Virus genome (UHGV): UHGV-0121884
Length of the DNA: 40,758 bases
Direction: 5' to 3' (one strand)
DNA from: a virus
In this document: positions 1 to 40,758 of the stretch, one piece after another
How positions within the stretch are numbered: the first letter of the stretch is position 1
How the letters are laid out: every line of letters begins with the position of its first letter
Program-made: the position numbers and the translations under genes
Notes under the pieces: model-generated
The model's database searches: none
The model's input: the letters and a program-made list of their open reading frames with translations, nothing else
Told to the model about the DNA's origin: nothing

Positions 1-134
1 TCGTCGCGCCGTTTGGCGATATGACGGTGAAATGCCATCAGCATTATTACATCACTACATTACCGGGCAGGCAGTGGCCAAAAATTGAGGCATTTATTAC
101 TTGGTTAAGAGAACAGGTAAAAACCACTTCATAA
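1..134 (+). CDS. dsdC: 3' end of host LysR-type regulator gene (dsdC-like), partial at window edge
   Basis: Frame open from window edge (codon phase from nt 3) to TAA at 132-134; translation ...VAPFGDMTVKCHQHYYITTLPGRQWPKIEAFITWLREQVKTTS matches my recollection of the E. coli DsdC C-terminus; lies outside the att core at 234-248. Confidence 0.45.
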   Translation, partial: VAPFGDMTVKCHQHYYITTLPGRQWPKIEAFITWLREQVKTTS

Positions 135-321: not shown

Positions 322-522
322 TTACCCATTGGCGCGGCTTAAGAGCTTATTTTTGAATTCACAATGGTCACGATATAACCATCTTGCTCGACCGTGGATA
401 ACTTTGGCTTTTGGCAGGTCGCCGGACTTAATCCGGTCGTAGATGAAGGTTTTACCAAAGCCAGTATCAGCCATGATGAATTTCAAATCAACCAGGGAAT
501 CAGGCTGTAGTTCGTGTTGCAT
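322..522 (-). CDS. AlpA-family HTH protein, putative excisionase (Xis)
   Basis: 66 aa; pattern LVDLKFIMADTGFGKTFIYDRIKSGDLPKAKVIHGRARWLY fits AlpA/Xis winged-HTH signature (TG..x..IY..IK.G.FP..K.G....W); GGAG 9 nt upstream of ATG; first gene inside the prophage end. Confidence 0.55.
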   Translation of the reverse strand: MQHELQPDSLVDLKFIMADTGFGKTFIYDRIKSGDLPKAKVIHGRARWLYRDHCEFKNKLLSRANG

Positions 523-582
523 GAGTGCTATCTCCGAATAGGGAATCGAACCTGCAAATCAGGTAATAAAAAACCGCCATCA

Positions 583-747
583 GGCGGATTGGTGTTCTTT
601 CAGTTCTTCAATTCGAATATTGGTTACGTCTGCATGCGCTATCTGCGCCCATATCATCCAGTGGTTATAGCAGTCGTTGATGTTCTCTGCTTCGATAACC
701 CTGTTGAATGGCTCTCCATTCCATTCACCTGTGACTTGGAAGTGCAT
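583..747 (-). CDS. small hypothetical protein (55 aa)
   Basis: ATG at 747 preceded by GGAG; followed by hairpin CCGCC-ATCAG-GGCGG plus T-run (rho-independent terminator, approx 575-600). Confidence 0.3.
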
Positions 748-804
748 TTATCATCTCCATAAAACAAAACTCGCCGTAGCGAGTTCAGATAAAAGAAATC
801 CGCA

Positions 805-1605
805 TTAAGCGGCGTCGGTGAATTCAAATAAAAAACCGGCTTGCGCCGGCTCTCTCATCTTTCTGTCTACCCATGCTGATATCGATGGCGGGTGCACCTT
901 TTCAATAGCAGCGCGAAGTACAGCTGTACGTGCCAGTTTGTCGGTAATCTCAGGAAATCGCTTCTCTGTCTTCGGTACGTTAACAGCAACATTAGTAGAA
1001 TCCGCACTGGCGAACGGATACATACCAAGAACTCTCACGTCGAGCATTCGAAGACCATGAATTTTCACTTTCAAATTACGATTGATATAAAGTTCAGTGA
1101 AAACTTCATCCATTCTCTGTTCCCACCATTTAGAGCGTATGTGCCTGTGTGGGCCGCAGCATCCAATCGCCACCCATTCAAATTTGCCAGAAAGGCGTAA
1201 AAGACGTTCAATTGATTCGTCGGTATGCCAGACAGGAACCGCTTTTGATTTTAGCCAATCAGGAACACACTCAATCTGCTCGTCGTTTTCTGCCTCTGTC
1301 CCTTCGATAACGTCAGGTATAAGAAACCATTCAATTCTGCTGAACCACTTCCCAACAAAGTCGTAGAATTTTGCTCGTCTCTTACTCCAGTCTACCGGAG
1401 TGCCTTTCTTTAATGCTTTCATCCAGTCGCTAAAAGCGCCGTTATCAAGGCGTATATCACAAGGGAACATGGCAATCTTTTTCATCTGCTCTGGTCTGGC
1501 AAATGAAACAAAAGCCCCACCATCACGGTAAAGGGCTTTAATCAGCATATCTGTAGGGGCATGCTCATCCCCCCATATTGGGCTGCCGTGAAAGTGGATG
1601 GTCAT
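805..1605 (-). CDS. hypothetical early-left accessory protein (266 aa); possible TGT/DpdA-like fold (speculative)
   Basis: Long ORF co-oriented with early-left operon; motif order LDNGAFS .. IPDVIEG .. VAIGCCG .. IHGLRMLD loosely resembles tRNA-guanine transglycosylase TDSGGFQ .. IIQG .. AVGGL .. MGVG; no zinc-site cysteines seen. Confidence 0.45.
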   Translation of the reverse strand: MTIHFHGSPIWGDEHAPTDMLIKALYRDGGAFVSFARPEQMKKIAMFPCDIRLDNGAFSDWMKALKKGTPVDWSKRRAKFYDFVGKWFSRIEWFLIPDVIEGTEAENDEQIECVPDWLKSKAVPVWHTDESIERLLRLSGKFEWVAIGCCGPHRHIRSKWWEQRMDEVFTELYINRNLKVKIHGLRMLDVRVLGMYPFASADSTNVAVNVPKTEKRFPEITDKLARTAVLRAAIEKVHPPSISAWVDRKMREPAQAGFLFEFTDAA

Positions 1606-1647
1606 ATTATCCCCATATAAAAGAAATCCCCGCGAGTGCGAGGATTG

Positions 1648-1932
1648 TTATTTATTGCCGATATTTACCTTTATCGCGTAAACCTTTACCGGTTTATCGC
1701 CGAAGTGCGGATGTGTGATTGTCTTGATTTCATACCCTTCATACGGGACGTCAATTCTGCGGCTGGAATCGTCGCGCTTCGGATATCCCTTTGTGATAAT
1801 CAGGCGGTCATACTCGCGGAACATAATTCGCTTATTCCAGTAGTCATTACACAGGCGATACTCTTCCGTTTTCTCTCCGCGAATCATGGCATCGAAGTAT
1901 TCACCTTTAACGGCAAGTTGCAGGTTAGCCAC
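1648..1932 (-). CDS. ASCH (PUA-like) domain protein
   Basis: 94 aa; N-terminal AVKGEYFDAMIRGEKTEEYR matches ASCH GxKxxExR signature; ends 43 nt upstream of the 805..1605 gene. Confidence 0.5.
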   Translation of the reverse strand: MANLQLAVKGEYFDAMIRGEKTEEYRLCNDYWNKRIMFREYDRLIITKGYPKRDDSSRRIDVPYEGYEIKTITHPHFGDKPVKVYAIKVNIGNK

Positions 1933-2212
1933 GACCTTCCTCCTTTGGCTTGTGAATTTGTATCGTCATGCCGCTTTGAGTGGTGACTACAACGACAGAA
2001 CCAGGCTGAAGACTGTTAAGATTGAATGCTTCGTAAAACGAAGCCAAGGCCAGCGCTTTTTTATTCTTTCGGTTCCACCAACGCCATCCATTGCTACAGG
2101 CTACACTGACAATCCACTGTCCACTCCTGTAAGCCATATAAAACCAGATGAGCAAAACCTGAATGAATGCTATCCAGTCAATAATCGTATATTTCGCGAA
2201 GGAGACCATCAA
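1925..2212 (-). CDS. hypothetical protein with hydrophobic N-terminal segment
   Basis: 95 aa ORF overlapping neighbours by a few nt (operon-like packing); IIDWIAFIQVLLIWFYMAY looks like a TM helix. Confidence 0.35.
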   Translation of the reverse strand: MMVSFAKYTIIDWIAFIQVLLIWFYMAYRSGQWIVSVACSNGWRWWNRKNKKALALASFYEAFNLNSLQPGSVVVVTTQSGMTIQIHKPKEEGRG

Positions 2213-2706
2213 TTAACCTCCTGCGGCGGTTCCGGTAGAGGCATCCAGTACAAGGCGTTCCCTAACCACGATAAAGTGCCGTCGCTCAACTCCACGTATT
2301 CCCCTTGTACCTGTCCTGCCATATACTCGCCGTGCTTTGAATAAATTAAAATCCAATCATCTTGAGCGGGCATTCGCTCACTACAGCTTATCCAACCATC
2401 CGGAGTTACCGGATAGTTGCCCGACAGCTCGTTCAACTTGTAAGTTTGGCTTACAGGTTCGGCTTCCAGTTCTGCTATGCGCTTTTTTGCTGCTTCCAGC
2501 TCAACACGCAGCCTCCCAACCGTTAGCGCAATATCCTCGTTCTCCTGGTCGCGGCGTTTTATGTATTGCTGGCTTTTATCCAGTTCATACAGCAACGTTT
2601 CTGCGTAAATATAAAGTTCCTGTTTTTCACGATCCGCAGGATCGCTGTAATGCTCCTGCATGTATTGAAATTCTTCACGCAGTGCCTGATAGTCAATCTT
2701 GCTCAC
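2209..2706 (-). CDS. DUF551 / Ea22-like protein
   Basis: C-terminal W...WMPLPEPP motif typical of DUF551; coiled-coil centre; start set at GTG 2706 (AGGAGG 6 nt upstream) rather than ORF-track GTG 2727. Confidence 0.5.
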
Positions 2707-2870
2707 TGGTCGCCTCCTTTGCGCCACATCGCATTCAGATGTTTGTTTTGATTCACTGATGGAAACGAGTTTCGCTTAAGTAATTCCTCTCTCGATGGCA
2801 TTGGCTTTACGCGTTGGCGAATAATCATTTCTGCTGGAAGAATGCCGGGATTGTATGCAAGTCCTCTCAT
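2703..2870 (-). CDS. small hypothetical protein (55 aa)
   Basis: ATG overlaps stop of upstream gene (ATGA); below ORF-track size cutoff; fills otherwise empty gap. Confidence 0.3.
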
Positions 2871-3148
2871 GATTTACTCTCCACGAACTGGTCAATAGCC
2901 ATGCTAAGTGACATACCTAAAGTTTCGATATGCTGCTGAATATCCTGTAGCGTCTGCGCCTGAGATAACAGGATTTCACGGTTGCATAACTCTTTGACCA
3001 GATGCTCAAACTTGCTGTAATAACCGATACGGCTTAGTGTTTCTTTCCCTGCATTCTCACCTTCTTTGATAATTCCTCTTTCATTAAGAATCAGGTCGTG
3101 TTTTGTTCCAGTAATAACGTATTTACCGAGGTCGATGTTTAGCTTCAT
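2867..3148 (-). CDS. hypothetical protein (93 aa)
   Basis: ORF in early-left operon orientation, tightly packed with neighbours. Confidence 0.4.
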
Positions 3149-3164
3149 TGTTAATTACTCCATG

Positions 3165-3479
3165 TTAATTTATTTGTATGCCTGCTCTTTTTTCATCGAG
3201 TTTTTTTAGCTTGTATCGCATAGCCCTTACCGAATAAATTGAGCGGCAGGTTGCAATTGCTATTTCTTCTGCGGAGAACTTACCGAAAAGTGATACTTCG
3301 GCTCTTGTCCATCGTCTTCCACGAAGTCGGCTAACAATGTCAGCGCCAATCCTTGTTGCTTTCGCCATTACTGCTTTTTCAGTCCTTTCCAGTTTTTCAG
3401 CGATAACTCCAACTGGCATTGTCGCCGCTACTTCGCGCAAGAAATCGACTTCCCATTTCTCCCATGGAGTCTTTTTCAT
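3165..3479 (-). CDS. hypothetical protein with two HTH-like repeats
   Basis: 104 aa; internal duplication W..E..FL..A...IAEKL / W..AEV.LFGKFSAEEIA. Confidence 0.4.
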   Translation of the reverse strand: MKKTPWEKWEVDFLREVAATMPVGVIAEKLERTEKAVMAKATRIGADIVSRLRGRRWTRAEVSLFGKFSAEEIAIATCRSIYSVRAMRYKLKKLDEKRAGIQIN

Positions 3480-3490
3480 AGGCGATACCG

Positions 3491-3973
3491 TTATTTGATA
3501 AGAAGTGAAGGTTTCCCAACTTTGAGTTGAGCGCCGGGGATATTTATTCCTGCTTTTAGTTGGTGTTTGATTGCCAGTTTGTCGGCTTTAATTGTCGTTT
3601 CAAACTCAACGTATTCAGGAGGAAGGGCGCTTGAGTCGATGATTTCTACAGTTTCTGACGGTTTGCGGATTGTTACCTGGTGAATACCTGCTCGAATCTT
3701 TTTCTTGCCAACCATTTCAAGCGATGACGCTATATACGCCATAATGCTGTCAATCTTATTTTGAATTACTGCGGCTCGCTCATTTAGTGACTGTGCCTCT
3801 TCCTTGAGGCGTTCAGCATAACCAGATTCATTTTTAATAATGGCAAGAAGTTGCTCTATTTTATCGGTAAATTCTCCTTCCATGCCTTCTATTGTGTCAG
3901 CAATCATCTCTGGCTCTAAATCTGAATCTATCAGCTTTGCGTATTCATTGGCAATTTCATACAGTTTGCTCAC
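3491..3973 (-). CDS. coiled-coil protein, Gp157-like, RecT-associated
   Basis: Immediately downstream of recT; start set at GTG 3973 with GGAGG 6 nt upstream (ORF track uses TTG 3979); family call is by resemblance only. Confidence 0.4.
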   Translation of the reverse strand: MSKLYEIANEYAKLIDSDLEPEMIADTIEGMEGEFTDKIEQLLAIIKNESGYAERLKEEAQSLNERAAVIQNKIDSIMAYIASSLEMVGKKKIRAGIHQVTIRKPSETVEIIDSSALPPEYVEFETTIKADKLAIKHQLKAGINIPGAQLKVGKPSLLIK

Positions 3974-4859
3974 TGGCAACCTCCAGTTTCGCTTTGCATT
4001 CTGCGTAAATGGCTTGTACGTTCTGCTGCAATTTCATTCCAGATGTCAGGCGATATGCTTCTGCAAAATATCTCTTCAAATCATCCATGTTTTCAGCCTG
4101 AGCCATTTCATCACAAAGAAGTTGTGCTTTTTCCATTATTTCCTGCTGGCGTTTCCGTTCATCTTCGCGGATATCTTCCTCTGATTTGTGCGGCATAACC
4201 GGTTCCTGATGCATACCCTCATCTTCGTTAAGCAGGTGAATGGCATTATCCAGTCGCTGGGCTTTAGGCCAGTATTTGCTGGCGCGTTTAACTATTGTTT
4301 TACGCGCCATCTCTTCCCAGAATGTCTTCCACGGTCCATTCTTTGCCTTGCTCGTTGCTTCCACAGCTTTAATTTCTGCCAGACTCATTTCTTCAGTCAG
4401 GTAGTCACCATCTGCTGTTTTAACCGTGCAATAACCACCAACAATAGAGCCTCGCTCACCAAATGCGTTGTATTTGTGGGTTGGCGCTGAATCAAGGCCG
4501 TTTGATTCATAGGTGTCGTTTGAGTACACCAGTTTACATTGCCCCCACTTAATTGATCCTGTCGACTGTGCAAGGTGAAGTAATCCCATATAGCTGATAT
4601 CAAGGCAAACCATGCCGTCGCGCGGAACTAGATAAGCAAGTTTGCTGGCCGGGTTTAATGTGATGCCGATCGCCGCAACATTGATGATGGCGTTCTGTGC
4701 GCTGGTTGGATTTGCCAGTGCCGTTTTAGCCAGGTAATCATTTTTCTGGAAATACTGAATTGCAAACTGGCTTTCCTTAGCCCATGTCACCGTCTGTTCA
4801 GTCAATGCTCCGCAGAATAACTGCTCCTGCTGTTTAACGAATTCAACGATATTGCTCAT
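3957..4859 (-). CDS. recT: RecT/Redbeta-family single-strand annealing recombinase
   Basis: 300 aa; conserved C-terminal block GYCTVKTADGDY..EMSLAEI......GPWKTFWEEMARKTIVKRASKYWP typical of RecT family. Confidence 0.75.
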   Translation of the reverse strand: MSNIVEFVKQQEQLFCGALTEQTVTWAKESQFAIQYFQKNDYLAKTALANPTSAQNAIINVAAIGITLNPASKLAYLVPRDGMVCLDISYMGLLHLAQSTGSIKWGQCKLVYSNDTYESNGLDSAPTHKYNAFGERGSIVGGYCTVKTADGDYLTEEMSLAEIKAVEATSKAKNGPWKTFWEEMARKTIVKRASKYWPKAQRLDNAIHLLNEDEGMHQEPVMPHKSEEDIREDERKRQQEIMEKAQLLCDEMAQAENMDDLKRYFAEAYRLTSGMKLQQNVQAIYAECKAKLEVASEQTV

Positions 4860-5167
4860 GCTGCTTCTCCATAAATGTGTCTGCGTTTGAATATTGCGAA
4901 GGCATATTCAGCCTTAACTCTTTCGGTTATTGCATCCCAGAACCATTCAGCGGCTTTTTCCTGATAGTCACAGTCATCATCTTCCAGCCAGTCGATAGCG
5001 TCCTTAGTGTGTTCATCTGGCTTATATGAGCGAAGCATTTCGCTTATTGGGTCGCAGCGTTTGCAGAGGCGATCAACTTCACTGTTGATTCGTTCGTAAT
5101 CTTCATCAGTAAAACTTGCGATGATTTGCGATATTTCACGCTTATCATTCAGAGTCAGAATCATCAT
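4856..5167 (-). CDS. hypothetical acidic protein (103 aa)
   Basis: ORF upstream of and overlapping recT start by 4 nt. Confidence 0.4.
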   Translation of the reverse strand: MMILTLNDKREISQIIASFTDEDYERINSEVDRLCKRCDPISEMLRSYKPDEHTKDAIDWLEDDDCDYQEKAAEWFWDAITERVKAEYAFAIFKRRHIYGEAA

Positions 5168-5248
5168 CTTTCTCCTGTTCTTTGTGCTGATTGAGCATTT
5201 TGTTCATCTGACGAATGAATTCTTCGTCTGACCAGTTATCTGTAAAAC

Positions 5249-5419
5249 TCATGGGCGGCCTTGTTGTTTCAAAATATCCCAAAGCTTTTCGAGCAAACTT
5301 TTCATTCTTGGTTGTTTAAAGTCTGCTCCGGTTAGAATGTTTTTTCGTGAATGCTGTACCGATAAAATCGGGTTGAAAGGGCGAACCGATGCCGCCCCTG
5401 CAATAGCGAACTGTTGCAT
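5249..5419 (-). CDS. CIII-like small protein (56 aa)
   Basis: ATG 5419 with AGGAG 6 nt upstream; N-terminus MQQFAIAG resembles lambda CIII MQYAIAG as I recall it; position between kil-like ORF and ea10-like gene as in lambda. Confidence 0.35.
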   Translation of the reverse strand: MQQFAIAGAASVRPFNPILSVQHSRKNILTGADFKQPRMKSLLEKLWDILKQQGRP

Positions 5420-5494
5420 AGGATGCTCCTTCTGTTTGATTGCATAACGAAAACGCCTCGAGTGAAGCGTTATTGGTATGCGGTAAAGCCGCGC

Positions 5495-5863
5495 TCAGGC
5501 GGCTTTGATAGTCATATCATCTGAATCAAATATTCCAGATGTGTCGATATCGGTAATTCTTATTCCTTCGCTACCATCCATTGGAGGCCATCCTTCCTGA
5601 CCATTTCCATCATTCCAGTCGAACTCACACACAACACCATATGCATTTAAGTCGCTTGAAATTGCTATAAGCAGAGCATGTTGCGCTAGCATGATTAATA
5701 CAGCATTTAATACAGAGCCGTGTTTTTTGAGTCTGTATTCAGAGTCTGACCAGAAATTATTAATCTGGTGAAGTTTTTCCTCTGTCATTACGTCATGGTC
5801 GATTTCAATTTCTATTGATGCTTTCCAGTCGTAATCAATGATGTATTTTTTGATGTTTGACAT
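5495..5863 (-). CDS. Ea10-like protein (122 aa)
   Basis: Same length (369 nt) and same 182-nt spacing to ral as lambda ea10. Confidence 0.45.
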   Translation of the reverse strand: MSNIKKYIIDYDWKASIEIEIDHDVMTEEKLHQINNFWSDSEYRLKKHGSVLNAVLIMLAQHALLIAISSDLNAYGVVCEFDWNDGNGQEGWPPMDGSEGIRITDIDTSGIFDSDDMTIKAA

Positions 5864-7085: not shown

Positions 7086-7394
7086 TCACCTCGCTGTCAG
7101 TTGTTTTGATTTCCGGTAGCCTGCTGCGTAAAGAGCTACGTTTGGCAGGCAAATACTTCCACTGCATTCGTCGGTATTTTGGTTACGAATGTTGCCGAGT
7201 GATATTGCTTTTTCAGAAAGGCTTAAACGCTTTCTCGTGCCTTTCTGAACAGGTTCCTCACTGTCTGTGCCGAAGATAGAATCAATGATGTTACAGATAG
7301 CATCACGCTCAATAGCCAGCTTTCTGCGCCGCTCATGACGGCGAGTTTTGGCATTTCCTGCAAATGTTGATTTCCCGCATACGATTACCGTCAT
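7086..7394 (-). CDS. N: antitermination protein N (P22 gene 24 type)
   Basis: 102 aa; N-terminal arginine-rich motif GNAKTRRHERRRKLAIERD is the P22 N boxB-binding peptide; cognate boxB found upstream at 7574-7588. Confidence 0.8.
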   Translation of the reverse strand: MTVIVCGKSTFAGNAKTRRHERRRKLAIERDAICNIIDSIFGTDSEEPVQKGTRKRLSLSEKAISLGNIRNQNTDECSGSICLPNVALYAAGYRKSKQLTAR

Positions 7395-20111: not shown

Positions 20112-22310
20112 ATGGCAGAAAAAAAGATGACTGACTGGCATCGCAAGGTGCTGTGCAACTTTGATAATGCCTGGTCAGCAACGCAGGATATGCGTGAGCA
20201 GATTATTGAGGCTCAGCGTTTCGTCCGGGTGTCCGGCGCACAGTGGGAAGGCAGCACAAACGCTGGTTACTCATTTGATGAAGGCAGGTTTGAGCATTAT
20301 CCGCGTTTTGAACTGAATAAGATTTCCCGTGAATGTGATCGCATCATTGGCGAGTATCGACAGAATCGCATCAGCGTTAAATTCAGGCCGAAGGATGACA
20401 AGGCATCGGAAGCTTTAGCCGAAAAAATGAACGGCAAATTCCGCGCTGACTATCAGGAAACATCCGGTGGCGAAGCGTGTGATAACGCATTTGATGATGC
20501 CGTAACGGGTGGATTCGGTTGTTTCCGCATGTGTGCCGATTACGAAGATGAAATGGATCCGAGTAACGAGCAGCGCCGCATCAGCCTTCTTCCTGTTTAC
20601 GACCCAGCGACATGCGTCTTCTTTGATCAGGACAGCAAGCAATATGACCGCTCTGATGCTATGTGGGCTATGGAAATGTTCTCCATGACGCCTAAAGCGT
20701 TCGAGGCTGAATACCCTGATTCCATCGCGGCAAGCCTTTCTCGTGATGACACTGGCACTCAATATGACTGGTCAACGCCAGATGCCATCTATGTTGGACG
20801 TTACTACGAAGTCCGCATAGAGAAGGTGAAGCTCACGGCGTGGCGCAACCCTGTTAGCGGAGAAACGGCAATCTATGATGAAGATCAAATCAAAGATATT
20901 GTCGACGAGCTAACCGATGGCGCATTCGAACTGATTGGTGAGCGAACGGTGAAGAAACGCCGCGTTTATTGCGGCCTTCTGTCTGGCGCTGAATGGCTGG
21001 AAGAACCGAAGCGTATTCCGGGCGAACATATTCCTCTCATCCCGGTATATGGGCGTCGTTCATTTGTTGATAATCAGGAGCGAATCGAAGGCCACGCAGC
21101 AAAAGCGATGGATGCACAGCGTCTTGAGAACCTGATGGTTTCCATGATTGCAGATAACGCTACTCAGGCTGGCGGTGATGGCATTCCTGTAGTTGATGTT
21201 GACATGATTCCTGGTCCTCTTGCCACTCATTGGGCGGAGCGCAACAAAAAGCGCCCGGCGTTCCTGCCGATGGTCAGTCTGAAAAACAAAAACGGAGATA
21301 TTACTGCGCAGGCTCAGGTCAGCAGTTATACACCTCCGACACAAATGCCTCCAGCTCTTGCCGGGCTATTGCAGTACACCGGAACGGCTATTCAGCAAAT
21401 TACAGGTGCGTCGCAGTTTGAGAACATGCCGAGCAACGTCGCCACCGATACCGTTGATAGCATCTTTAACCGGATGGACACGCAGTCCTATATCTACATG
21501 GACAACATGGCTAAATCCATGCGCCGCGCTGGCGTTGTGTGGCTTTCTATGGCGCGTGAGGTCTATGGCAGTGATACGCCGATGCGTATCGTTAATGAGG
21601 ACGGCAGCGATGACGTGGCGCTGATGACTGGTGAAGTGGTTGACCGTCAGACAGGGCAGGTTATCGCGCTTAATGACCTTTCGCAGGGCAACTATGAAGT
21701 GACTGTCGATGTCGGTCAGTCGTTCGCTACTCGCCGTGATGCAACGGTTAAGTCGTTACTTTCCATGCTGGCACTTATCCCACCAGGAACGCAGAAGCAC
21801 GACCTTGTATCGTCGATGATTCTCGACAATATGGACGGCGAAGGGATGGACGACCTTAAAGAATACAACCGCAATCAGTTGCTTCTGTCTGGCGTTATCA
21901 AGCCGAGAACGCCTGAAGAACAGCAGATGGTTGAACAGGCGAAACAACAACAGGCCAGTCAGCCAGATCCGGCTATGGTTGCAGCGCAAGGTCAACTTCT
22001 TGCTGGTCAGGCTGAATTGCAGAAAGCGCAGAACGAACAGGCAGCTATTCAGGTTAAAGCATTCCAGGCACAGACGGATGCTCAGGTTGCTGCGGCAAAT
22101 GTTGTGAAAATCCTCGCATCTGCCGATAGCCAGCAGAAATCTGATATCCGCGAGGCTCTGAAACTGCTCGGACAGTTCCAGCAACAGCAAGGAGATAACG
22201 CCCGTGCTGATGCAGAGCTTGTCCTGAAAAGTCAGGCACAGGGCCATGCACAACGAATGGACATCAGCAGCATCCTGCAAAAATCAACCCAGCAACAACC
22301 ACAGCAGTAA
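20112..22310 (+). CDS. portal protein (P22 gp1 type)
   Basis: 732 aa; Q-rich C-terminal helical barrel region typical of P22-like portals. Confidence 0.9.
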   Translation: MAEKKMTDWHRKVLCNFDNAWSATQDMREQIIEAQRFVRVSGAQWEGSTNAGYSFDEGRFEHYPRFELNKISRECDRIIGEYRQNRISVKFRPKDDKASEALAEKMNGKFRADYQETSGGEACDNAFDDAVTGGFGCFRMCADYEDEMDPSNEQRRISLLPVYDPATCVFFDQDSKQYDRSDAMWAMEMFSMTPKAFEAEYPDSIAASLSRDDTGTQYDWSTPDAIYVGRYYEVRIEKVKLTAWRNPVSGETAIYDEDQIKDIVDELTDGAFELIGERTVKKRRVYCGLLSGAEWLEEPKRIPGEHIPLIPVYGRRSFVDNQERIEGHAAKAMDAQRLENLMVSMIADNATQAGGDGIPVVDVDMIPGPLATHWAERNKKRPAFLPMVSLKNKNGDITAQAQVSSYTPPTQMPPALAGLLQYTGTAIQQITGASQFENMPSNVATDTVDSIFNRMDTQSYIYMDNMAKSMRRAGVVWLSMAREVYGSDTPMRIVNEDGSDDVALMTGEVVDRQTGQVIALNDLSQGNYEVTVDVGQSFATRRDATVKSLLSMLALIPPGTQKHDLVSSMILDNMDGEGMDDLKEYNRNQLLLSGVIKPRTPEEQQMVEQAKQQQASQPDPAMVAAQGQLLAGQAELQKAQNEQAAIQVKAFQAQTDAQVAAANVVKILASADSQQKSDIREALKLLGQFQQQQGDNARADAELVLKSQAQGHAQRMDISSILQKSTQQQPQQ

Positions 22311-24617: not shown

Positions 24618-24806
24618 ATGTCTCAAATCATGCTTTATAAGCCGGGATCGATGATCACCTGCGGCCCCCACTCGCTGGATTACATCATCGTTGATGACGA
24701 AGAAGTTAAATCTCACCTGAAAAAAGGCTGGGTAAAAACTCCTGAAGAAACCGCAACGAAGCAAAAAGTGGCTAAGGCGGAAGAAGATGGCGAAAACGAA
24801 GGGTGA
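24618..24806 (+). CDS. small hypothetical protein (62 aa)
   Basis: ATG 24618 with GGAGAT upstream; overlaps gp4 start. Confidence 0.35.
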   Translation: MSQIMLYKPGSMITCGPHSLDYIIVDDEEVKSHLKKGWVKTPEETATKQKVAKAEEDGENEG

Positions 24807-25248
24807 TCTCGTTCTAAAGGCTTTACGAAAAGCCGGGCTGTATTCCAATGCCACGTTGACAGATGCTGACCCTCAGGCAATTGAAGATGCCATTAATGAC
24901 CTCGAAGACATGATGGCAGCATGGCAGGCTAAAGGTATCGAGCTTGGATATCAGTTTGCTGATACAGAAAACGGCATCATGCCGTTACCTGACGATGATT
25001 CAGGTATCCCTGCATGGGCAAATGATGGCGTCGCTTTGAAACTCGCTGTGCAAGTGTGCATGGATAACGTCATTCAGCCGTCAGACGCTCTCCTTACCGC
25101 TGCTGACAGTGCATATCAAACAATCTGTATCGCTTTAACCAAAATACCACCACTTGAGCGGCGAAATGATATGCCTCGCGGGGCGGGGTTAAAAAGCGCG
25201 TTTACGTGGAATCGGTTTTACATCGAGAAAGATGATCCGAGTACGTGA
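24787..25248 (+). CDS. tail accessory / head-completion protein gp4
   Basis: 153 aa; KTKGDLVLKALRKAGLYSNATLTDADPQ resembles P22 gp4 N-terminus. Confidence 0.7.
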   Translation: MAKTKGDLVLKALRKAGLYSNATLTDADPQAIEDAINDLEDMMAAWQAKGIELGYQFADTENGIMPLPDDDSGIPAWANDGVALKLAVQVCMDNVIQPSDALLTAADSAYQTICIALTKIPPLERRNDMPRGAGLKSAFTWNRFYIEKDDPST

Positions 25249-25257
25249 GGTGAATAA

Positions 25258-26676
25258 ATGCCGATTCAGCAACTTCCGCTTATGAAAGGTGTCGGCAAAG
25301 ACTTTCGAAACGCCGACTATATCGACTATCTGCCAGTGAATATGCTGGCTACGCCCAAAGAAATACTCAACAGCAGCGGATATCTTCGCTCATTCCCGGG
25401 CATTGCCAAACGTTCTGATGTGAACGGCGTATCGCGGGGCGTCGAGTACAACATGGCGCAGAATGCTGTTTATCGCGTATGTGGTGGTAAGCTGTACAAA
25501 GGAGAAAGTGAAGTCGGTGACGTCGCCGGAAGTGGTCGCGTATCAATGGCGCATGGTCGAACATCTCAGGCTGTAGGCGTTAATGGTCAACTGGTCGAGT
25601 ATCGCTATGATGGTACGGTTAAAACCGTCTCAAACTGGCCTACAGACAGCGGATTCACGCAGTATGAGTTAGGCTCAGTCCGCGACATTACGCGATTACG
25701 TGGGCGTTATGCGTGGTCAAAAGACGGTACTGATTCATGGTTTATCACTGACCTTGAAGACGAATCTCATCCTGACCGCTACAGCGCACAATATCGCGCA
25801 GAATCGCAGCCGGACGGCATCATCGGCATCGGAACATGGCGAGACTTCATCGTCTGCTTTGGCTCATCGACGATTGAATATTTCTCCCTGACGGGCGCAA
25901 CCATTGTTGGTGCCGCTTTGTATGTCGCCCAGCCATCGCTGATGGTGCAGAAAGGCATCGCCGGAACCTACTGCAAAACGCCGTTTGCTGATTCGTATGC
26001 GTTCATCAGCAATCCGGCAACAGGTGCGCCGTCTGTGTACATCATCGGCTCCGGTCAGGTGTCACCAATCGCCAGCGCGAGCATTGAGAAAATCCTCCGC
26101 TCCTACACTGCTGATGAACTGGCTGATGGCGTGATGGAATCGTTGCGCTTTGATGCTCATGAGTTGCTGATTATCCACCTTCCGCGCCATGTTCTCGTGT
26201 ACGACGCATCTTCAAGCGCCAATGGTCCGCAATGGTGTGTGCTGAAAACAGGCTTGTATGACGATGTGTACCGCGCTATCGACTTCATTTACGAAGGCAA
26301 TCAGATAACGTGCGGAGATAAGCTGGAATCGGTTATCGGCAAATTGCAGTTCGATATCAGCAGCCAGTATGGGCTACAGCAAGAACACCTGTTGTTTACA
26401 CCACTCTTCAAAGCTGAGAACGCCAGATGTTTTGATCTGGAAGTTGAATCATCGACTGGTGTCGCTCAGTACGCTGACCGCCTGTTCCTCTCTGCAACCA
26501 CTGACGGCATCAATTGGGGAAAAGAGCAGATGATTGAGCAGAATGAACCGTTCGTTTACGACAAACGCGTTTTGTGGAAGCGAGTAGGGCGCATCAGGAA
26601 AAATGTCGGCTTCAAATTGCGCGTTATCACGAAGTCACCTGTCACTCTGTCTGGCGCTCAGATAAGGATCGAGTAA
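25258..26676 (+). CDS. tail hub protein gp10
   Basis: 472 aa, same length and position as P22 gp10. Confidence 0.8.
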
Positions 26677-32450: not shown

Positions 32451-33311
32451 TTACTTGTCTGGTGAGTGTTTATAACGGGCCTGTGAAAGGCTGTAGTTAG
32501 CAAATTTCTCAAGGCGCTCAGCAATTTCATCTAGTCGCTTAAGACGTTCGTCAAAGGGTGTATTCTTGTCAAATTTTGCATTTGACCAAAAATCTTGGCT
32601 AACCTTGTGTGCTTCTTCAACCAGTTTCTCTACTTCGCTATGCGGCATTGGAGAGATAAGTTTTTCCCTCTTTATTCGGAACTGAGAATGAATAGCCACG
32701 CCAACAACCTCGATAAAATCAGGTTGGAACATAGGGTATAAAGGGTTAAGTGGCTTAAGGTAGATTTGGCGCTGATCCAGTATAAGCTGCTTAAATGTAG
32801 CCTCAGAATCATCATTCAGCACACACATCACAAAGTCACCAGAAACAGCCTCTAGCGATGAATCGAAAGTTACGATTGTTCCAGGAGGAAAGCTAATCCC
32901 ATCACCGGAAGACATGGAGTCTCCTTGTATTTCAACGGCAAAACAGTATTCATTGGCTTCAGGAGGGGCTGGAATAAAGTCCTTTATAGCAGCAGTCTTT
33001 AGTAAATCATCTAGCGATTCAAATCTTGCCTGTACGTGTGTTAGCACAGGAATCTCGCGCACAGTAACAGTTCTCTTGACACTGCTAACGTCAGGGCCAT
33101 CTCCTTTCCCTTGCGTAAGCCATTCAGTGGTAGTTCCCAATGCAGCCGCAAGGTTTTGAAGTGCCTTTTCTCTTGGCTTGGCTTCCCCGCCCTCGTAAGC
33201 AGCGATCTGTCTGGATACCACGCCTACTTTCTTAGCAAGCTCGGATTGAGTCAAACCGATGGAGTTGCGCGCTATGGCAACTCGTTTAGAAAAAGAATCA
33301 TCAAAACTCAT
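32451..33311 (-). CDS. CI/LexA-like HTH-S24 protein with Ala-Arg at the cleavage position and a C-terminal extension
   Basis: 286 aa; XRE HTH (IGLTQSELAKKVGVVSRQIAAYE), S24 motifs GDSMS and TFKQL; region PVLTHVQARFESL aligns to C2 [13 protein letters not shown] but has AR instead of AG; about 70 extra helical residues at C-terminus. Confidence 0.6.
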   Translation of the reverse strand: MSFDDSFSKRVAIARNSIGLTQSELAKKVGVVSRQIAAYEGGEAKPREKALQNLAAALGTTTEWLTQGKGDGPDVSSVKRTVTVREIPVLTHVQARFESLDDLLKTAAIKDFIPAPPEANEYCFAVEIQGDSMSSGDGISFPPGTIVTFDSSLEAVSGDFVMCVLNDDSEATFKQLILDQRQIYLKPLNPLYPMFQPDFIEVVGVAIHSQFRIKREKLISPMPHSEVEKLVEEAHKVSQDFWSNAKFDKNTPFDERLKRLDEIAERLEKFANYSLSQARYKHSPDK

Positions 33312-35227: not shown

Positions 35228-35764
35228 TCAAACAACCCACCAGTTTGCCTGATTGGATGCCAGCCTTGCGGTTTTTATGGAATTAATTATGCCATGCTCA
35301 AGAGCCTTGTTAGCATCCAAAATGGTCGAGTCTGCTATCAGGGATGCCCACCTAATATGGGTTCCGATGTCGATATTGAACGTCTCAACGAAGCGATCAA
35401 GATCGTTATCGAGGCATTTCCCGTACTCTCTCAATCTGGCATGGTCGGCGGCTGGGGAGGCAAAGCACCATAATAGAGGATGTAACAGGAATCTTGATAA
35501 TGGGTTTGCGAAACGTTCTGAGCCAGCCAGGAAAACGATATTAGCTATGGATTCAACATTGCTTATGTTGTGAGTTCTAACGGTAACAGGGAGTGACTTA
35601 AGAAAGTTATACGCAGTAAAGCCAGCGGCAGTTTCCCCTCCCTGACTTGATATATGGATATTTAATTCAGTTGCGCCTTGAGATAATGCGGTGAGACAGT
35701 GGTTCTGAAGTTGCCCAACAGTGGCAGTGTTAACGGGGCATAAGAAATGAATTGTGTGCAGCAT
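35228..35764 (-). CDS. ClpP-fold serine protease homolog (178 aa), translationally coupled to mnt
   Basis: Aligns to ClpP core: ISSQGGETAAGFTAYNFL vs INSPGGVITAGMSIYDTM; ESIANIVFLAGSERFANPLSRFLLHPL vs [29 protein letters not shown] (candidate catalytic Ser and His retained); start ATG overlaps mnt stop (TAATG). Confidence 0.6.
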   Translation of the reverse strand: MLHTIHFLCPVNTATVGQLQNHCLTALSQGATELNIHISSQGGETAAGFTAYNFLKSLPVTVRTHNISNVESIANIVFLAGSERFANPLSRFLLHPLLWCFASPAADHARLREYGKCLDNDLDRFVETFNIDIGTHIRWASLIADSTILDANKALEHGIINSIKTARLASNQANWWVV

Positions 35765-36018
35765 TATTTATCATCCTTGCCATAAATCTTTTTAAGTGTC
35801 TCAAACACAACGGCCTTGAACTGCTCTGCTTGCTGATCAGCCAAGCGTTCAGCTTCGTCTCGATAGCCTGCAATCGGTGATGGCTTTGAGAGAGCATCCT
35901 GAACGATTTGTAATAACTCAGAGTTCATTGACCTTCCGTTAGCCTCTGCTCTTAATTTCAATTTTTCTCTTACTTCCAAAGGCATACGGAAGTTAAAGTG
36001 CGGATCGTTTCTAGCCAT
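35764..36018 (-). CDS. mnt: Mnt repressor (ribbon-helix-helix)
   Basis: 84 aa; MARNDPHFNFRMPLEVREKLKLRAEANGRSMNSELLQIVQDALSKPSP closely matches P22 Mnt. Confidence 0.85.
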   Translation of the reverse strand: MARNDPHFNFRMPLEVREKLKLRAEANGRSMNSELLQIVQDALSKPSPIAGYRDEAERLADQQAEQFKAVVFETLKKIYGKDDK

Positions 36019-36548: not shown

Positions 36549-37472
36549 ATGACGAGTGTAGCAATTGCAGAACATACAATCAACGTTCCATTCCACGGAA
36601 CAAATCTCTTTTTGGTCAGCATTAACAATGAACCTTACGTTCCTATGAAACCCGTTGTAGAAGGCATGGGTATGGTTTGGGCTGCTCAATTTGTTAAATT
36701 AAAACAGAGATTTGTCAAAGGTATTTCGGAAATCGAAATACCTTCTGCTGGCGGTAAACAGTTAATGATATGCCTTGCCTTTCGTAAGTTTGCGGCTTGG
36801 CTTTCAAGCATTCAGCCAAACAAAGTCCGTCCTGAAATCCGCGACAAGGTAATCCAGTATCAGGAAGAGTGTGACGATGTGCTATACGAGTACTGGACTA
36901 AAGGTCATGTAGTTAACCCACGCAAAGCTAAAAAGGCGTTGCCGGGTAAAATCACCACTGAACAGCAGGAAGCCATTAAACAACTCGTCATGAGTCGCGG
37001 TCAGTCTCTGCCAAAAGAAAAACAGGCTAAGGCGATGATCACCATGTGGTCCTCACTGAAATCCCATTTTGGATGTTCGTACAAAGAAATCAGTGAGGAG
37101 CAGTTCACCGAAGCACTGTCACTTGCAGCTCGAGTTCCACTTGAAGGTGAGTTCATTGGCAAACAAGAAGAGTTACCAGCGCCAAAACTGGATATTAACT
37201 TCCCGATTTCATGGTTTGCTGAAAATGCACCTTACGCCATTATCAGGCAGCAATGCGGTGATACTGTTGCTCTTGACCGCAGCGCACTCGTTGAATGCAG
37301 TCCGGCGTATAAACTAATCAATATTCTGACAAAAGCGGGGTATGACGTTTCAGCAGTAAGAGCTGAACTAAAAGCACTTCGCCATTTAATGGCTGAGCAA
37401 AGCTGGGCACTTAAAGAGATAGCTTCATTCGCAGCGATACGTGATAGAGCGTGCCACTCAATAAAACTTTAA
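36549..37472 (+). CDS. ant: antirepressor Ant
   Basis: 307 aa downstream of arc as in P22 immI; N-terminal AntA-like region NVPFHGTNLFLVSINNEPYVPMKPVVEGMGMVW. Confidence 0.65.
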   Translation: MTSVAIAEHTINVPFHGTNLFLVSINNEPYVPMKPVVEGMGMVWAAQFVKLKQRFVKGISEIEIPSAGGKQLMICLAFRKFAAWLSSIQPNKVRPEIRDKVIQYQEECDDVLYEYWTKGHVVNPRKAKKALPGKITTEQQEAIKQLVMSRGQSLPKEKQAKAMITMWSSLKSHFGCSYKEISEEQFTEALSLAARVPLEGEFIGKQEELPAPKLDINFPISWFAENAPYAIIRQQCGDTVALDRSALVECSPAYKLINILTKAGYDVSAVRAELKALRHLMAEQSWALKEIASFAAIRDRACHSIKL

Positions 37473-37512
37473 CTACCTGCACGAAAAGTGTAGGTCAATA
37501 ACCAACGCAACG

Positions 37513-37537
37513 ACCCAGCTTCGGCTGGGTTTTTTTA
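37513..37537 (+). terminator. rho-independent terminator after ant
   Basis: ACCCAGC-TTCG-GCTGGGT followed by T7. Confidence 0.6.
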
Positions 37538-37594
37538 TGCCCAAAATTCACCGTAGCCATGCTTCGGCGATTCCTTGTATCTGGAGCAAATTAA

Positions 37595-40540
37595 ATGACA
37601 GACATTACAGCCAATGTGATTGTATCGATGCCTTCGCAACTCTTCACTATGGCGCGTTCTTTTAAAGCCGTAGCTAATGGCAAAATTTATATCGGTAAAA
37701 TTGATACTGACCCTGTAAATCCTGAAAACCAGATTCAGGCTTATGTGGAGAACGAAGACGGTTCTCACGTTCCTGTTTCTCAACCAATCATCATTAACGC
37801 TGCTGGATATCCTGTATATAACGGACAGATTGCCAAATTCGTTACCGTGCAAGGCCATTCTATGGCTGTTTATGATGCGTATGGTGCGCAGCAGTTCTAT
37901 TTTCCTAATGTGCTGAAGTATGACCCAGATCAACTACGGCAGCAATTAGAAGACCCAGATGGAGCGAATAAATACCCAAAACTTCAGATAGCAAGATGGA
38001 GAGACAGTTATGATGTAAGAGGTTGGGGGGCTATTGGTGATGGTGTTCATGATGATACATCAGCTCTATCAGAATTACTTTCTGTTGCAACAGGTGGTGA
38101 AAAGATAGATGGGCGAGGGCTTACTTTTAAAGTATCAACTCTTCCAGATGTCAGTCGATTTAAAAATGCTCGTTTTTTATTTGAGAGAATACCGGGTCAG
38201 CCTCTTTTTTATGCTTCTGAAGATTTTATCCAGGGAGAGTTATTTAAAATTACAGATACACCGTGGTACAACGCCTGGACGCAGGATAAAACGTTTGTAT
38301 ATGACAATGTCATCTATGCGCCTTTTATGGCTGGAGACCGCCATGGTGTAAATAACCTCCATGTTGCATGGGTTCGCTCAGGAGATGACGGGAAGACCTG
38401 GACAACGCCGGAATGGCTTACAGATTTACATGAAAACTATCCCACAGTTAACTATCACTGCATGAGTATGGGGGTTGTCAGAAATCGCCTTTTTGCTGTA
38501 ATTGAGACGCGGACCGTGAGAGGAAATAAACTGCAGGTTGCAGAGTTGTGGGATCGCCCAATGAGTCGCAGCCTTCGCGTTTATGGTGGTATAACGAAAG
38601 CAGCAAATCAGCAAGTCGCTTATATTCGCATTACTGATCACGGATTATTTGCTGGTGATTTTGTCAACTTCTCAAACTCTGGTGTTACAGATGTTACCGG
38701 GAATATGACGGTGACTACTGTTATTGATAAAAATACCTTTACAGTTACGACGCAAAATACCCAGGATGTGGATCAGAATAACGAGGGTAGATACTGGAGT
38801 TTTGGCACATCATTTCACTCGTCACCATGGAGAAAAACCAGTCTTGGAACTATTCCTTCTTTTGTTGACGGAAGCACTCCTGTTACTGAGATTCACAGTT
38901 TTGCGACGATTAGCGATAACAGTTTTGCTGTTGGCTACCATAATGGTGATATTGGTCCACGCGAGCTTGGGATACTCTATTTCTCTGATGCTTTCGGTTC
39001 TCCTGGTAGCTTTGTTCGCAGACGCATACCTGCAGAATATGAGGCGAATGCATCTGAGCCATGTGTAAAATATTATGATGGCATTCTGTATCTGACGACC
39101 AGGGGGACATTAAGTACTCAACCCGGTAGTTCATTGCACAGAAGCTCTGATTTAGGTACATCATGGAATTCTCTTCGCTTCCCAAATAATGTTCATCACT
39201 CAAACCTTCCTTTTGCCAAAGTTGGCGATGAGCTGGTTATTTTTGGCAGTGAGCGCGCATTTGGTGAGTGGGAAGGAGGAGAACCTGATAACCGTTATGC
39301 AGGAAATTATCCAAGAACATTTATGACCAGAGTTAACGTCAATGAGTGGAGTCTGGATAATGTAGAGTGGGTTAATGTTACTGATCAGATTTATCAGGGC
39401 GGAATAGTTAACTCTGCGGTTGGTGTTGGTTCAGTTTGTATCAAAGACAACTGGCTGTACTACATTTTCGGTGGGGAAGATTTTCTAAACCCATGGAGCA
39501 TAGGGGATAACAACAGAAAATATCCTTATGTTCACGATGGTCACCCGGCTGATTTGTATTGTTTCAGGGTGAAAATTAAACAGGAAGAATTTGTTTCAAG
39601 GGATTTTGTCTACGGAGCCACTCCTAACAGAACGCTTCCTACTTTTATGTCGACGTCAGGCGTGAGGACGGTTCCTGTACCCGTTGATTTCACAGATGAT
39701 GTTGCCGTCCAGTCACTGACTGTCCATGCAGGTACATCAGGACAAGTTCGCGCGGAAGTCAAACTTGAGGGTAATTACGCCATTATTGCGAAGAAAGTAC
39801 CGTCTGATGATGTTACCGCTCAGAGATTAATCGTTAGCGGCGGTGAAACAACGTCTTCAGCAGATGGTGCAATGATAACGTTGCATGGTTCCGGAAGCAG
39901 TACTCCACGTCGCGCGGTATATAACGCACTCGAACATCTTTTTGAGAACGGAGATGTTAAACCTTATCTTGATAATGTAAATGCTCTTGGTGGTCCGGGA
40001 AACAGGTTCTCGACAGTTTATCTTGGCTCCAATCCTGTGGTTACCAGTGACGGAACATTAAAGACAGAGCCGGTCTCTCCTGACGAAGCATTGCTGGATG
40101 CCTGGGGTGACGTCAGGTATATCGCTTATAAATGGCTGAACGCTGTCGCTATAAAGGGGGAAGAAGGGGCGAGGATACATCATGGTGTAATCGCGCAGCA
40201 ACTTCGTGATGTTCTTATTTCTCACGGACTCATGGAAGAAGAAAGCACAACATGCCGCTATGCCTTTCTTTGCTATGACGATTATCCCGCAGTATATGAT
40301 GACGTCATTACTGGCCAAAGGGAAATGCCGCTGACTGATAATGACGGGAGCATCATTGTTGATGAGGATGATAATCCAGTGATGGTAATAGAAGACATCA
40401 TTGAGCGCGTTGAAATAACGCCAGCAGGATCTAGATGGGGGGTCAGACCTGATCTCTTATTCTATATCGAGGCGGCATGGCAGCGCAGAGAAATAGAAAG
40501 AATAAAAGCTAGGTTAGACTTAATAGAAGGGAAGCACTAA
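37595..40540 (+). CDS. tailspike: P22-type head-binding domain fused to endosialidase (endo-N-acetylneuraminidase) with C-terminal intramolecular chaperone domain
   Basis: 981 aa; N-terminus [57 protein letters not shown] matches P22 gp9 head-binding domain; C-terminal 164 aa (from Ser818, motif SDGTLK) matches K1-phage endosialidase chaperone domain; GGAG SD. Confidence 0.85.
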
Positions 40541-40693: not shown

Positions 40694-40758
40694 ATGTCAA
40701 GACTCAAGACTCAAGACTCAAGACTCAAGACTCAAGACTCAAGACTCAAGACTCAAGA
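40694..40758 (+). CDS. neuO: 5' end of neuO-like polysialic acid O-acetyltransferase gene (partial, runs off window)
   Basis: ATG 40694 with AGGA 7 nt upstream, immediately followed by AAGACTC heptad repeats encoding (SRLKTQD)n, the known neuO 5' architecture; acetyltransferase body not in window. Confidence 0.6.
   Translation, partial: MSRLKTQDSRLKTQDSRLKTQ
40697..40758. repeat. tandem heptanucleotide repeat (TCAAGAC / AAGACTC), at least 8 full copies, truncated by window end
   Basis: Perfect copies at 40697, 40704, 40711, 40718, 40725, 40732, 40739, 40746 plus partial ninth copy. Confidence 0.9.

Follow-up and report, generated by a model that had tools for sequence, protein, structure and literature searches.

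The P22-like phages CUS-3, HK620, Sf6 and P22 have tailspikes with a conserved N-terminal domain, and the catalytic domain of the CUS-3 spike is an endosialidase (PMC5380687, citing Stummeyer et al. 2006). The CUS-3 protein, SiaK1 or endoNK1 (CP000711, ABQ88383), was described by Stummeyer et al. in 2006 (PMID 16689790) and King et al. in 2007 (PMID 17601779). It is listed at 109 kDa in a review table (PMC5380687) and counts among the endosialidases that have been cloned and are enzymatically active (PMC3594737). In CP000711, siaK1 is annotated as "endosialidase tailspike protein" with endo-alpha-sialidase activity under the evidence code IDA (PMID 16689790). The spike of phage K1F, gp17 (endoNF; PDB entries 1v0e, 3gvl and 3gw6), carries the same catalytic domain as that of CUS-3 on a T7 tail-fibre-like N-terminus (PMC5380687). 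The exact chimeric architecture that we describe below is already known, as it is stated for CUS-3 in published reviews (PMC5380687, PMC3594737). It is a textbook example of a host-range switch via the exchange of tailspike modules, for which CUS-3 serves as the reviews' illustration.

Work on K1F gp17 and on pb1 of phage T5 also provides a model for C-terminal processing. In the mechanism proposed for both proteins, the scissile serine is activated by a lysine five residues downstream, and cleavage requires an arginine of the neighbouring chain in the folded triple beta-helix (PMC4690869), so that cleavage reports the correct folding of the trimer. The folding of P22 gp9 needs no released intramolecular chaperone (PMC4690869).

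Here, we analysed a tailspike gene in a stretch of viral DNA of 40,758 nucleotides (UHGV virus genome UHGV-0121884), which we refer to as the window. This gene almost certainly encodes the spike of a temperate phage that infects E. coli K1 and is both P22-like and CUS-3-like. It belongs to the already described CUS-3 type of endosialidase tailspike, and nothing in it is new; nor does the sequence hold anything against this reading. The gene is one more allele of this type, from extraintestinal E. coli with a mosaic prophage like CUS-3; it is useful for annotation and opens no new question. The breakpoints of its modules are mapped precisely in the window.

Domain composition of the tailspike

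The coordinates of the gene, its domains and its surroundings are collected in Table 1. The ATG is preceded by GGAG at a distance of 9 nt, and the product begins with MTDITANV, as in P22 gene 9. In a megablast comparison with phage records, CUS-3 siaK1 (CP000711) matched the gene with 99.0% nucleotide identity at 100% gene coverage, leaving 30 nucleotide differences. The two proteins have the same length, and 970 of the 981 residues are identical. The 11 substitutions (at positions 43, 49, 121, 207, 309, 366, 548, 767, 807, 832 and 932) avoid every key residue that was checked (0 of 11). The precursor has a predicted mass of 109.3 kDa, which matches the 109 kDa given in the review (PMC5380687), and residues 1–817 and 818–981 are predicted at 90.6 and 18.7 kDa, respectively. 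A chance match is ruled out for the ORF, the Pfam and structure matches and the SDGTLK motif.

Two other interpretations of the ORF were discarded. A frameshifted or truncated pseudogene was rejected because the gene has 981 codons, the same number as CUS-3 siaK1. A 132-aa antisense ORF (37535..37933, minus strand) was considered mechanical, as it overlaps the strongly conserved head-binding coding region and is without support. The RefSeq label for the gene is just "phage tailspike protein".

Table 1. Positions of the tailspike gene, its predicted domains and neighbouring features in the window
Feature	Coordinates	Strand	Residues	Identity to K1F	Basis or remark
P22_portal	20112-22310
P22_Tail-4	24787-25248
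Phage_stabilise (gp10)	25258-26676
ORF with HTH_3 and Peptidase_S24	32451-33311	-	285 aa
ClpP-like protease ORF	35228-35764	-	177 aa		Pfam CLP_protease, E = 2e-11
Arc/Mnt-family repressor ORF	35764-36018	-
Antirepressor gene	36549-37472	+	307 aa
Conserved tailspike leader	37495..37594	+			"bsq1 boundary sequence" in the CUS-3 annotation; contains the ribosome-binding site
ant terminator, hairpin plus T-run	37512-37531				Terminator scan; matching site annotated as ant terminator in HK620 and P22
Tailspike gene, CUS-3 siaK1 orthologue	37595..40540	+	981 aa		ORF with ATG start
Head-binding (virion-attachment) domain	37595..37933	+	1-113		Pfam PF09008; ends YDPDQ
Linker/neck	37934..38029	+	114-145	56%	BLASTP to K1F gp17 aa 214-245
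Endosialidase N-terminal extension (End_N_terminal)	38030..38230	+	146-212	61%	Pfam PF12218, E = 8e-37
Six-bladed beta-propeller catalytic domain (End_beta_propel)	38231..39580	+	213-662	70%	PF12217, 772 bits, E = 1e-232
End_beta_barrel insert in propeller	38564-38812	+	324-406		Pfam PF12195
Stalk (End_tail_spike)	39581..40045	+	663-817	56%	PF12219, E = 7e-78; ends ...LGSNPVVT817; contains Arg804
Predicted intramolecular chaperone, putatively self-cleaving	40046..40537	+	818-981	56%	PF13884, 3gw6; 18.7 kDa
Ser818 codon	40046-40048	+	818
Lys823 codon	40061-40063	+	823
neuO, from ATG to window end	40694-40758

The N-terminal part scores 220 bits (E = 7e-66) with the Pfam family Head_binding (PF09008), whose curated cut-off is 24, and residues 1–113 cover model positions 1–113 of 113. 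Among solved structures, the head-binding domains of P22 (1lkt, E = 3e-44) and Sf6 (7sg7, E = 3e-64) were matched, and the P22, Sf6 and related solved tailspikes align only to residues 1–118/127. BLASTP with P22 gp9 gave 66% identity over 137 aligned residues (E = 7e-57), with the similarity decaying past YDPDQ113. The identity to HK620 over residues 1–113 is approximately 96%, as counted on an alignment with HK620 and Gally. An earlier reading of the DNA made from the sequence alone (hereafter, the sequence-only reading) had assigned the first 110 residues to a P22 gp9 head-binding domain; the domain is present over its full model, and it ends at residue 113. The ORF coordinates given in that reading are exact, and each element of its interpretation is borne out, with minor corrections. 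The Lederbergvirus spikes of P22 (gp9), HK620 and Sf6 are alike in this domain and in the upstream ant terminator and leader, whereas for receptor binding they have beta-helix O-antigen hydrolases that bear no relation to the endosialidase, and the similarity stops between residues 113 and 127.

The remainder of the protein had been said to lack the P22 endorhamnosidase and to resemble the endosialidases of K1 phages instead. Residues 146–817 indeed form a complete endosialidase, in which PF12218, PF12217, PF12195 and PF12219 are all found in order and at full length. The K1F endosialidase structures 1v0e and 3gvl align end to end with residues 145–817 (E = 0), the last residue of 1v0e being aligned to residue 817, and solved structures at about 63–66% identity span residues 145–979. 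In BLASTP, residues 214–1064 of K1F gp17 match residues 114–980 of the tailspike with 62.6% identity. Alignment domain by domain to P22 gp9 and K1F, which the sequence-only reading had suggested as a check, gives a P22 part of residues 1–113 followed by homology to K1F from residue 114. The homology to K1F gp17 takes in the linker and everything C-terminal of it, with the same domain order and the same catalytic and cleavage residues, but the N-terminal virion-attachment part of K1F gp17 is unrelated, with residues 1–213 of K1F unmatched in BLASTP against the tailspike. A Pfam search of the central part for a signal other than endosialidase gave none but a BNR_2 match below the threshold, located within the propeller. 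His350, Arg549, Glu581, Arg596 and Arg647 of K1F, which are designated as key catalytic residues in a mutational-scan paper (PMC12632334), are identical in the tailspike, where they correspond to His250, Arg456, Glu488, Arg503 and Arg554.

The C-terminal part scores 41.6 bits with Peptidase_S74 (PF13884, "chaperone of endosialidase"), for which the cut-off is 22, and residues 818–878 are aligned to model positions 1–57. The K1F construct 3gw6, which consists of the stalk and the chaperone, aligns to residues 698–979 (E = 6e-96). The residue opposite Ser818 in 3gw6 is Ala, the construct's replacement of K1F Ser911. All of the cleavage residues are conserved: in the motif SDGTLK, Ser818 corresponds to Ser911 of K1F and Lys823 to Lys916, and the counterpart of Arg804 is Arg897. 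In the GenBank record of K1F, the mature gp17* ends at residue 910 and gp17-CTD starts at residue 911. The middle stretch of the chaperone domain (residues 906–945) is just 25% identical to K1F. These matches agree with the earlier proposal that the last 164 residues, starting at Ser818, are a chaperone domain with a Ser-Lys dyad in SDGTLK. Proteolytic maturation of endosialidases at a conserved serine is reportedly treated in work by Stummeyer in 2006, King in 2007 and Schwarzer in 2009.

Expected maturation and function

We infer the enzyme activity, the cleavage and the virion attachment of this spike from its homologues. By this analogy, three precursor chains of 109 kDa would trimerise, guided by the C-terminal chaperone domain. 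After the triple-beta-helix stalk has folded, Lys823 would activate Ser818, and the neighbouring chain would supply Arg804. The bond between Thr817 and Ser818 would then be cut, and the 18.7-kDa fragment would be released. The window also encodes a gp4/gp10 tail hub, to which the mature spike of approximately 90.6 kDa would attach by means of its P22-type N-terminal domain. The docked spike would bind and cleave the alpha-2,8-polysialic acid of the K1 capsule, by which the phage would reach the cell surface. Genes for a cognate P22-type tail hub and portal are in the same genome (P22_Tail-4, Phage_stabilise and P22_portal in Table 1). Because these P22-type structural homologues are present in the window, they would be the expected docking partners for the head-binding domain.

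The enzyme might instead have a changed specificity for polysialic acid, for example towards or away from the O-acetylated form, that is linked to the adjacent neuO gene and differs from a plain K1F-like activity. The neuO start lies 154 nt downstream of the tailspike stop, and NeuO-dependent O-acetylation guards against K1 phage (PMC9659370). In addition, the enzyme part is just approximately 66% identical to K1F, and it has an insertion of 7 residues (424–430) relative to K1F gp17, which is without this stretch. However, the catalytic residues are identical to those of K1F, and for the CUS-3 enzyme, which is 99% identical, the annotated endo-alpha-sialidase activity is an assayed one. Both points argue for an ordinary endosialidase and make such a shift in specificity improbable.

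It might also be supposed that the prophage is decaying and that the gene, although it looks intact, is a relic, which never occurs in virions and has no current role, or one unrelated to infection. CUS-3-like prophages are reportedly prone to decay, and in many isolates, RS218 among them, their tail and coat genes carry a pseudogene annotation (PMC9659370); an intact tailspike gene is therefore no proof of an inducible phage. The related phiv205-1 copy (compared over locus positions 344–5739) is split by two transposase genes of an insertion sequence at approximately gene nt 208. In the present gene, however, the ORF is of full length and every checked key residue is intact. Four complete E. 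coli chromosomes carry it at 100% identity, and a copy with at least 80% coverage occurs in 181 of 5,426 complete E. coli genomes. The window also contains ORFs of ordinary length for the P22-type terminase, portal, coat, gp4, gp10 and gp7. On these grounds, we regard a relic as quite unlikely and retain the reading of the gene as a CUS-3-type tailspike.

Module junction and mosaic history of the gene

When the 5′ part of the gene was searched with blastn, the matches to HK620, P22, epsilon34, N7 and the majority of the other P22-like phages listed stop at query positions 458–461, which correspond to window positions 37932–37935. Because the P22-like DNA matches end there and the homology to K1F gp17 starts at residue 114, the principal junction is located at codon 113/114 (nt 37933/37934, with codon 114 starting at 37934). 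The matches to smaller phage groups end at window positions 37948–37951 and 37972, and the DNA similarity to Gally and 683R2 ends at 38043, at the GWGAIGDG motif. The sequence-only reading had placed a domain junction near nt 37920–37980, and the real mosaic boundary falls within this range; the three downstream ends, together with gene nt 522 in the comparison with phage ZX5 (see below), are further breakpoints. Its description of the junction as a recombination hotspot is a fair one, although recombination at the tailspike genes of P22-like phages is an established property (PMC2629481; PMC5380687).

The tailspike of Gally is 91% identical over residues 1–159, unrelated beyond and without an endosialidase Pfam domain, which indicates that the linker of residues 114–150 is common to spikes of other specificity. 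This linker (window 37934–38043) is shared with residues 214–250 of K1F gp17 and with Gally and 683R2. Its users include the T7-like K1F spike, the present P22-like spike and P22-like spikes that are not endosialidases.

The tail fibre of the Uetakevirus vB_EcoP_ZX5 (MW722083; compared over locus positions 2303–5422) has an endosialidase and chaperone module that is 99.5% identical at the nucleotide level to gene nt 522–2914, with 96% amino acid identity over residues 134–980 of the tailspike. In contrast, its N-terminal part of approximately 190 residues differs, and its phage backbone is that of another genus. In this comparison, the breakpoints are not at codon 113/114; they fall within the N-terminal extension of the endosialidase and close to the 3′ end of the gene.

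The divergence from CUS-3 siaK1 is distributed unevenly along the gene. The first 361 nt contain 17 of the 30 nucleotide differences, which amounts to 4.7% as compared with 0.5% in the rest (binomial P = 8e-9), so that the divergence is approximately 9-fold lower past gene nt 361. The two parts of the gene therefore differ in their recent histories. As a tentative explanation, which we hold to be reasonable but somewhat short of probable, the linker of approximately 37 residues (114–150, ending in GWGAIGDG) may act as a portable connector that offers short patches of homology for swaps of receptor-binding modules between unrelated backbones. The low divergence past nt 361 would then reflect that either the head-binding part or the enzyme part was independently replaced in this lineage not long ago.

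Prophage setting

The window holds an apparently intact, mosaic prophage that is CUS-3-like and P22-like. At the megablast level, CUS-3 matches only about half of the window; the prophage is a mosaic relative of CUS-3 and not CUS-3 itself. CUS-3 has the same boundary sequence upstream of the tailspike gene, the same neuO heptad array downstream and the same order of ant, tailspike, neuO, int and argW (tRNA-Arg). From approximately position 37498 to the tailspike ATG, the window and CUS-3 are identical, and 5′ of this stretch they diverge. The antirepressor and the product of CUS-3 ant are equally long, but the two sequences differ in the approximately 25 nt compared just 5′ of the boundary sequence at approximately position 37498, which gives a sharp mosaic edge.

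Over its final 7,164 bases, the window shows full identity to the chromosome of E. coli O16:H6 strain CU37RT-2, in which the locus continues with an acyltransferase gene, intS and a tRNA-Arg gene. In neuO, which encodes a phase-variable O-acetyltransferase, an array of AAGACTC heptads begins at position 40699 and is cut by the window end. The array has 8 full copies before the window end, 35 copies in the identical stretch of CU37RT-2 (locus positions 7105–7349) and 19 in CUS-3. Because 35 heptads are not a multiple of three, the reading frame of neuO in CU37RT-2 is off.

Several other ORFs lie upstream of the tailspike gene. The variable "ant moron", located between the ejection-protein genes and the tailspike gene, contains the Arc/Mnt-family repressor ORF and, directly downstream of it, the ClpP-like protease ORF. 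The ORF with HTH_3 and Peptidase_S24, an architecture like that of LexA/CI repressors, is located in the moron region of the late operon, away from the usual immunity region.
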